Positions 15,304 through 16,352 of a DNA stretch of 16,352 nucleotides are shown one piece after another. Source of the DNA: a virus (Duplodnaviria > Heunggongvirae > Uroviricota > Caudoviricetes). The position numbers and the translations under genes were made by a program. The first letter of the stretch is position 1, and each line of letters starts with the position of its first letter. Location: the IMG/VR virus record IMGVR_UViG_2603880150_000001. One strand, given 5' to 3'. A model generated the notes under the pieces. The model was not told the DNA's origin, searched no databases, and saw nothing but the letters and a program-made list of their open reading frames with translations.

Positions 15304-15363
15304 AATCTAATCAGCCTTATAAAAATTATCATCTTCGGTTTCGTTATTTTCGCTGTTTGCTAG

Positions 15364-16352
15364 GGAAGGTGCGAACAAGTTCCTGATATGAGATCATCAT
15401 ATTCATCCGGAGCGCATCCCAGAGGGACATCATGAGCCATCAACTCACCTTCGCCGATAGTGAATTCAGCACTAAGCGCCGTCAGACCCGAAAAGAGATT
15501 TTCCTCTCCCGCATGGAGCAGATTCTGCCATGGCAGAATATGACCGCTGTCATCGAGCCGTTTTATCCCAAGGCGGGCAATGGCCGACGGCCCTATCCGC
15601 TGGAGACCATGCTGCGTATTCACTGCATGCAGCATTGGTACAACCTGAGCGACGGTGCCATGGAAGATGCCCTGTACGAAATCGCCTCCATGCGCCTGTT
15701 TGCCCGATTATCCCTGGATAGCGCCCTGCCGGATCGCACCACCATCATGAATTTCCGCCACCTGCTCGAGCAGCATCAACTGGCCCGTCAATTGTTCAAG
15801 ACCATCAATCGCTGGCTGGCCGAAGCAGGCGTCATGATGACCCAAGGCACTTTGGTGGATGCCACCATCATTGAGGCACCCAGCTCTACCAAGAACAAAG
15901 AGCAGCAACGCGATCCGGAGATGCATCAGACCAAGAAAGGCAATCAGTGGCACTTTGGCATGAAGGCCCACATTGGTGTCGATGCCAAGAGTGGCCTGAC
16001 CCACAGCCTGGTCACCACCGCGGCCAACGAGCATGACCTCAATCAGCTGGGTAATCTGCTTCATGGAGAGGAGCAATTTGTCTCAGCCGATGCCGGCTAC
16101 CAAGGAGCGCCACAGCGCGAGGAGCTGGCCGAGGTGGATGTGGACTGGCTGATCGCCGAGCGTCCCGGCAAGGTAAAAACCTTGAAGCAGCATCCGCGCA
16201 AGAACAAAACGGCCATCAACATCGAATACATGAAAGCCAGCATCCGTGCCAGGGTGGAGCACCCGTTTCGCATCATCAAGCGGCAGTTCGGCTTCGTGAA
16301 AGCCAGATACAAGGGGCTGCTGAAAAACGATAACCAACTGGCGATGTTATTC
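15364..16352 (+). mobile_element. IS5 insertion sequence (left end; continues beyond window)
   Basis: Left terminal inverted repeat GGAAGGTGCGAACAAG starts at 15364, immediately after a CTAG tetranucleotide (the known IS5 target). The downstream sequence encodes the IS5 transposase. IS5 is about 1.2 kb, so the right end lies outside the window. Confidence 0.9.
15432..16352 (+). CDS. insH: IS5 transposase InsH (3'-truncated by window end)
   Basis: Open frame from ATG 15432 to the window end, 307 codons. Translation '[37 protein letters not shown]...' matches IS5 InsH as recalled essentially residue for residue. Not in the supplied ORF track because no stop codon falls inside the window. Confidence 0.9.

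Follow-up and report, generated by a model that had tools for sequence, protein, structure and literature searches.

The window is the complete 16,352-nucleotide stretch of viral DNA analyzed here (IMG/VR record IMGVR_UViG_2603880150_000001). Late genes of the P2 family, encoding the capsid, the terminase and the portal protein, are present, and the portal gene ends at position 13106. Relatives that encode the same portal protein or the same TumB carry early genes of the 186 type, namely CI (Phage_CI_repr/CI_C), CII (CP76), Fil, Dhr and the A replicase. The 186-type early genes of these relatives, taken together with the P2-family late genes in the window, point to an Eganvirus-like prophage of the 186 type, and sequence comparison assigns the window to a 186-like E. 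coli prophage (Eganvirus-type, P2-family), of which it forms the end that carries the late genes and adjoins cos. The features that lie between the portal gene and the end of the window are collected in Table 1.

Table 1. Features of the interrupted tum operon, its downstream genes and the adjoining insertion sequence (window positions)
Feature	Position	Strand	Basis
263-aa cargo ORF, adjoins portal gene and presumed cos end	13738..14529	-	phrog_31193, E 9e-172
69-aa ORF, PSP3 gp37 homolog (orf37-like)	14667..14876	-	phrog_11386, E 2e-46
Strong hairpin directly after the tumB stop codon	15025..15067	-	RNA fold -35.9 kcal/mol, z -4.2; phage 186 annotation
tumB, DinI-like, 77 aa, intact	15070..15303	-	Pfam DinI PF06183; phrog_189; annotated tumB in PSP3
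tumA 3' remnant, codons 43-60 and stop, encodes LANSENNETEDDNFYKAD followed by the stop	15307..15363	-	Translation compared with full TumA of PSP3 and E. coli Ecol_545; DNA alignment
CTAG target site (would be one of the two 4-bp duplication copies expected), tumA nt 127-130	15360..15363	.	Sequence; intact loci
ISKpn26, first 989 of 1196 bp	15364..16352	+	100% match to annotated ISKpn26 copies

The DinI-like gene was identified as tumB. Its product matches PF06183 with an E value of 7e-24 and a score of 84.3 bits (gathering cutoff of 24.2) across profile positions 2–63 of 63, and a protein identical to it is widespread. The hairpin that follows the tumB stop codon has a perfect 14-bp stem with no T-run after it and occupies the position of the partial terminator t95a of phage 186; we infer a corresponding role as a t95a-like partial terminator. 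The 263-aa ORF contains an HNH-like motif of the form CxxC...H...CxxC and shows a weak match to PtuB, the HNH nuclease of Septu (E 7e-5), with no Pfam match. It stands in a variable, cos-proximal cargo slot after the tum operon and, judged from its sequence, may be a candidate defence gene. A 103-aa DUF2188 protein is encoded beside the portal gene on the minus strand (13145–13456) and matches the PADLOC candidate defence family PDC-S16 with an E value of 1e-14.

The insertion sequence begins with the terminal inverted repeat GGAAGGTGCGAACAAG at 15364–15379, directly after CTAG. This repeat is 16 bp in length, has the form GGAAGGTGCGAA(C/T)AAG, and is identical to the end of the reference ISKpn26 copy. 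Exactly 60 bp (15304–15363) separate the end of the IS from the ATG of the DinI-like gene at 15303 on the minus strand, and this arrangement, which had been described in an earlier note on this DNA, was confirmed by reading the sequence. The same note called the element IS5. The family is correct, but the element is the isoform ISKpn26 (IS5 family, IS5 group): all 989 of the 989 bp present are identical to PGAP-annotated copies of ISKpn26 on many plasmids, versus 93.9% identity with IS5A of K-12. The coding sequence for the IS5-type DDE transposase starts with the ATG at 15432 and runs on the plus strand past the end of the window, and is thus divergent from tumB. Both the identity and the orientation of the IS are direct observations. 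The full-length reference ISKpn26 is 1196 bp, has the inverted repeats GGAAGGTGCGAACAAG and CTTATTCGCACCTTCC, and is flanked by the 4-bp duplication CTAA/CTAA. From this length, the end of the present copy is predicted near 16559, approximately 207 bp beyond the end of the window. An ORF of 91 amino acids at 15360–15635 on the minus strand, antisense to the transposase, leaves the element through its end and stops at the TAG of CTAG; this ORF is probably fortuitous.

The segment between the IS and tumB was compared with uninterrupted alleles from the phages PSP3 and SW9, from one 100%-identical E. coli chromosome and from 19 further loci. By this comparison, the 60 bp left beside the DinI-like gene are the 3' coding sequence of tumA and not a promoter. 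In the intact alleles tumA is 183 nt in length, encodes 60 amino acids, and has its stop codon 3 nt before tumB. The PSP3 and SW9 genomes match window positions 14613–15363 at approximately 91% identity, and the homology ends exactly at the IS junction. The 60-aa tumA of PSP3 is annotated as "similar to 5' end 186 tum; UV induction of prophage" and is followed by tumB and then by gp37; the layout in SW9 is the same (tumA, a 3-nt gap, tumB). In the three-way DNA alignment the window remains in register through ...CTAGCAAACAGCGAAAAT... up to the tumA stop codon. From 14560 to 15364, the window is also matched at 100% identity by four complete E. coli chromosomes, which contain the intact tumA MVGEHFSRTQQKWACVQFIAEVSLIANCKPSDLKLALTLIADLANSENNETEDDNFYKAD. 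The break is thereby placed directly after nt 130 of the 183 nt of tumA, that is, after codon Leu43 and the first base of Ala44. An intact antirepressor ORF (the 60-aa TumA) is absent from the window, where only codons 43–60 are found, and the remnant contains the ribosome-binding region of tumB. No Pfam family was found for TumA in a Pfam search; the protein falls in phrog_1993, function unknown.

The tumA frame was also located in independent relatives. Where an identical TumB is encoded, all 10 independent contigs (10/10) carry a 60-aa tumA frame 3 nt before tumB together with a canonical LexA box, and CTAG appears at nt 127 of tumA in 9 of these 10 intact loci. Among the loci with an identical portal protein, 8 of 10 carry the tumA frame and the LexA box, and one of the 8 (L022) is frameshifted. 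For the other two loci (L023 and L024), a 60-aa gene was called at the equivalent position and the motif scan gave no match there. The L022 allele (E. coli, GCA_040812855.1, positions 8826–9012) contains an extra A in tumA, a +1 frameshift that reads ...CATCAGAACTTAAAG..., with the LexA box intact. This allele may have lost tumA independently in nature, or the extra base may be an error of sequencing.

The LexA operator was searched for in the window and in the intact alleles. The earlier note had found no complete LexA box in the remaining 60 bp, and this holds for the whole window: the pattern CTGT-N8-ACAG is absent from all 16.3 kb, and no LexA box with one core mismatch or fewer appears in 14500–15440. 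The sole LexA box of the intact Ecol_545 allele is TACTGTATAAATATACAGTA. This operator stands 21–22 nt ahead of the tumA start codon (its end is at 21 nt in Ecol_545) and is 143 bp away from the insertion point, in a position that corresponds to the far side of the IS, outside the window. The location of this operator in the intact alleles is directly observed, and a LexA box overlapping the promoter before tumA is present in 10/10 and 8/8 of the relatives in the two groups where tumA was located. The window contains no LexA box; in the present locus the box, if still there, would have to be on the other side of the IS. The operator region of Ecol_545 aligns with the annotated p95 promoter (−35 TTCACA, −10 TACTGT) and LexA site of phage 186, and by this alignment the operator TACTGTATAAATATACAGTA is homologous to the p95 promoter/LexA site. 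The comparison with uninterrupted alleles that had been proposed thus recovers a LexA box, before tumA and 143 bp past the insertion point. The idea that the native promoter and operator had been displaced stands insofar as the DinI-like gene is cut off from its LexA-controlled promoter; it fails in that the adjoining 60 bp are coding sequence and the operator is 143 bp upstream.

The reference for this arrangement is the SOS operon of phage 186 (p95, LexA operator, tum and orf97). The Tum protein of 186 is a LexA-controlled antirepressor that binds CI (PMC3121763). According to Bunny et al. (2002), as cited in PMC3121763, the tum region of PSP3 and Fels-2 is split by a stop codon, and antirepressor activity is assigned to PSP3 TumA by a personal communication relayed in PMC3121763. 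For the P2-like prophage of E. coli HS, deletion of tum or a noncleavable lexA (Ind−) abolishes induction by mitomycin C (PMC12055606). As in 186, the window operon is read on the minus strand toward cos, and in the intact relatives it is found between the replication gene A and cos, with a homologous promoter and LexA box. In alignment with 186 Tum, TumA corresponds to the N-terminal half, and TumB, the DinI-like domain that follows immediately downstream of this antirepressor part, corresponds to the DinI-like C-terminal half. Unlike 186, the window type and PSP3 divide tum into tumA (60 aa) and tumB (77 aa), the place of orf97 after tumB is taken by other cargo (the orf37-like ORF and the 263-aa ORF with the HNH-like motif), and the operon of the window is interrupted by ISKpn26, with the promoter outside the window. 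A close phage layout is that of Salmonella phage PSP3, also of phage SW9 and the Fels-2 type: tumB, orf37 and the tumA 3' end share 91% of their nucleotides with the window, the gene order agrees, and tumA and tumB have the same 3-nt spacing. In PSP3 tumA is intact, whereas the window allele has the IS after codon 43 and matches the E. coli chromosomal alleles at 100%.

The target CTAG is of the YTAR type preferred by ISKpn26, and a simple insertion is the most economical reading of the junction. Insertional inactivation by ISKpn26 and IS5 is well-known, the best-known case for ISKpn26 being mgrB::ISKpn26 in colistin-resistant Klebsiella. The present locus resembles these cases in the element (100% identical), in the YTAR-type target and in the disruption of a small ORF; it differs in that the target is an antirepressor gene of a prophage and not a host regulator.

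The insertion of ISKpn26 at CTAG inside tumA is read as a split of the LexA-controlled tumA-tumB operon, with SOS induction of the prophage probably abolished or weakened, and a probability of about 80% is given to this reading. The main consequence, which the earlier note does not mention, is the disruption of the antirepressor gene tumA itself. In the intact relatives, the LexA-repressed p95-like promoter would drive tumA, tumB, orf37 and then the variable cargo, toward cos. ISKpn26 has transposed into the CTAG of tumA, after codon 43 and one base, and a second CTAG, the rest of tumA and the LexA box are expected past the far end of the IS, outside the window. For a simple insertion, the far junction would read ...CTTATTCGCACCTTCC, then CTAG, then GTCTGCAATGAGAGTGAG... 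on the plus strand of the window, and the 5' part of tumA after this CTAG would read GTCTGCAATGAG... on the same strand. The p95-proximal fragment would encode at best TumA(1–43) followed by 15 IS-derived residues, GKVRISRSFLPKLTR, and a stop.

The residues that would be lost from TumA were evaluated using an alignment of 46 family members. The conserved core extends from 12 to 47. Residues A44 and E47 do not vary, conservation of Y57 reaches at least 90%, and nearly all members are 60–61 aa long. The AF2 model of TumA is a helical hairpin with helices at 8–25 and 30–50 (mean pLDDT of 70, moderate confidence). The insertion would remove Ala44, Glu47, Tyr57 and the acidic tail, place a basic tail instead, and shorten the predicted helix 2. 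With these conserved residues and the acidic tail gone and helix 2 shortened, TumA has probably become weak or inactive as an antirepressor, and SOS induction of the prophage has probably weakened or ceased with it.

The genes beyond the break would be affected as well. Between p95 with its LexA box and the genes tumB, orf37 and cargo there would now be 1.2 kb of IS, read in antisense. Three minus-strand terminator-like hairpins are found inside ISKpn26, one of which has a T-run and is located approximately 100 bp inside the far end, and the antisense stretch, being untranslated, should undergo Rho-dependent polarity. Because of this antisense, untranslated and hairpin-bearing spacer, SOS-dependent expression of tumB, orf37 and the cargo genes is probably largely lost. 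The earlier suggestion that SOS control of the DinI-like gene was severed is therefore very probably right, by way of an insertion in tumA and not in a promoter. That note had also named an insertion inside an unrelated upstream gene as an outcome that would speak against it; the IS does lie inside an upstream gene, but tumA is not unrelated, since it is co-transcribed with the DinI-like gene.

Other explanations for the junction were considered. In the model of the earlier note, the IS sits in the intergenic promoter/operator of a stand-alone dinI-like gene and splits a LexA box, of which the CTGT at 15353–15356 would be the left half. This CTGT is indeed at the position given, alone and 8 bp from the junction, in a 60-bp segment devoid of a LexA box. 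However, it lies within the tumA remnant, where it is the complement of AAC-AGC, the codons for Asn45-Ser46 when tumA is read on its own strand. The intact allele reads on with CTGTTTGCTAGGTCTG at this place, TTGCTAGGTCTG coming after the CTGT, and provides no ACAG partner. In all intact alleles the 60 bp complete the reading frame of a conserved 60-aa gene, and the LexA box sits 143 bp further upstream. The reading of CTGT as an orphaned half-site is thus abandoned, and the split-box model, already refuted by the uninterrupted alleles, is left with a negligible probability. A milder effect of the same insertion is conceivable but unlikely: TumA(1–43) with its IS-encoded tail would still act as an antirepressor under p95 and LexA, the prophage would remain SOS-inducible, and tumB and the cargo alone would lose SOS control. 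The retention of residues 12–43, the most conserved block, agrees with such an effect, as do the variability of residues 48–56 across the family and the equivalent region of phage 186, which is a poorly conserved linker. Against it stand the loss of the invariant A44 and E47 and of the conserved Y57, the exchange of an acidic for a basic tail, the truncation of predicted helix 2, and a family length that is almost invariably 60–61 aa.

Expression of the downstream genes might instead be gained if the end of the IS created a new LexA-independent promoter, making tumB and the genes after it constitutive. Elements of the IS5 family are known to activate neighbouring genes, and weak hybrid −35/−10 candidates straddle the junction, for example, TTCGCA (IS end)-18 nt-GAAAAT with 8/12 matches. 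Documented activation by IS5 is described as acting on pre-existing silent promoters, however, and none is evident at this junction; no minus-strand candidate reaches the consensus threshold of 9/12. A promoter gain of this kind is considered doubtful. Promoters and terminators alike were called purely from consensus matches. No sigma-70-like promoter was found on the minus strand from 13100 to 15700, and the same scan misses the p95-like promoter in the intact allele, so this negative result on the IS side is weak evidence. The transposase promoter would not be able to replace p95, as it faces away from tumB; the IS5-driven read-through proposed earlier is not borne out by the divergent genes or by any consensus-grade outward promoter, and read-through from the transposase promoter into tumB was rejected for the former reason. 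It is also rather improbable that the junction marks one side of a larger rearrangement or deletion mediated by the IS, such as recombination between copies of ISKpn26. In that event the LexA box, the tumA 5' end and possibly the early region would no longer be adjacent. The window stops inside the IS and the same junction is absent from the sequence collections described below, as would fit such an event; positive evidence for it is lacking, and the simple insertion at CTAG (YTAR) is more economical.

The junction was searched for in sequence collections. With megablast, no record spanning both sides of the near junction was found in 5,426 complete E. coli genomes. No exact-pattern match to the near junction or to the predicted far junction was obtained in the genome contig collection, and none to the near junction in the metagenome contig collection. 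The predicted TumA(1–43)-IS fusion protein is absent from the protein collection by exact look-up. None of the 20 places that encode an identical TumB or an identical portal protein contains the IS. The absence of the junction from these databases indicates that the allele is rare or unsampled, and nothing more.

The allele is new, but as a knockout by an IS in an already known SOS operon of a phage it is ordinary and reveals no new mechanism. If the disruption of tumA has the consequence proposed above, the strain carries a 186-like prophage with structural genes that appear intact and that is no longer inducible by DNA damage, which would be a further example of IS-mediated prophage domestication. 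The prediction of prophage inducibility from sequence is affected, as annotation pipelines call tumA only a "hypothetical protein". The locus also illustrates that a short unannotated gene upstream of a recognizable one can make a gene disruption resemble a promoter insertion. A selective explanation, in which the insertion was a "grounding" step that locked the 186-like prophage in lysogeny while tumB and the HNH-like and DUF2188 cargo were kept, possibly on a LexA-independent hybrid promoter, is speculative and regarded as improbable. The frameshifted tumA of the independent E. coli locus L022 hints that loss of tumA may recur.

Two further variations of the operon were observed in the relatives. 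In L023 and L024 (8966–11816), tumA is followed directly by genes for a protein of 223/236 aa and a Ser/Thr protein kinase of 535 aa. A DinI-like gene is absent from both, which suggests that tumB is a dispensable or exchangeable part of the operon. In two E. coli prophages (L007, 1925–3409, and L026, 9042–10529), a gene for a reverse transcriptase (RVT_1) of approximately 495 aa is located between A and the tumA promoter region, and this gene could belong to a group II intron or a retron-like element.
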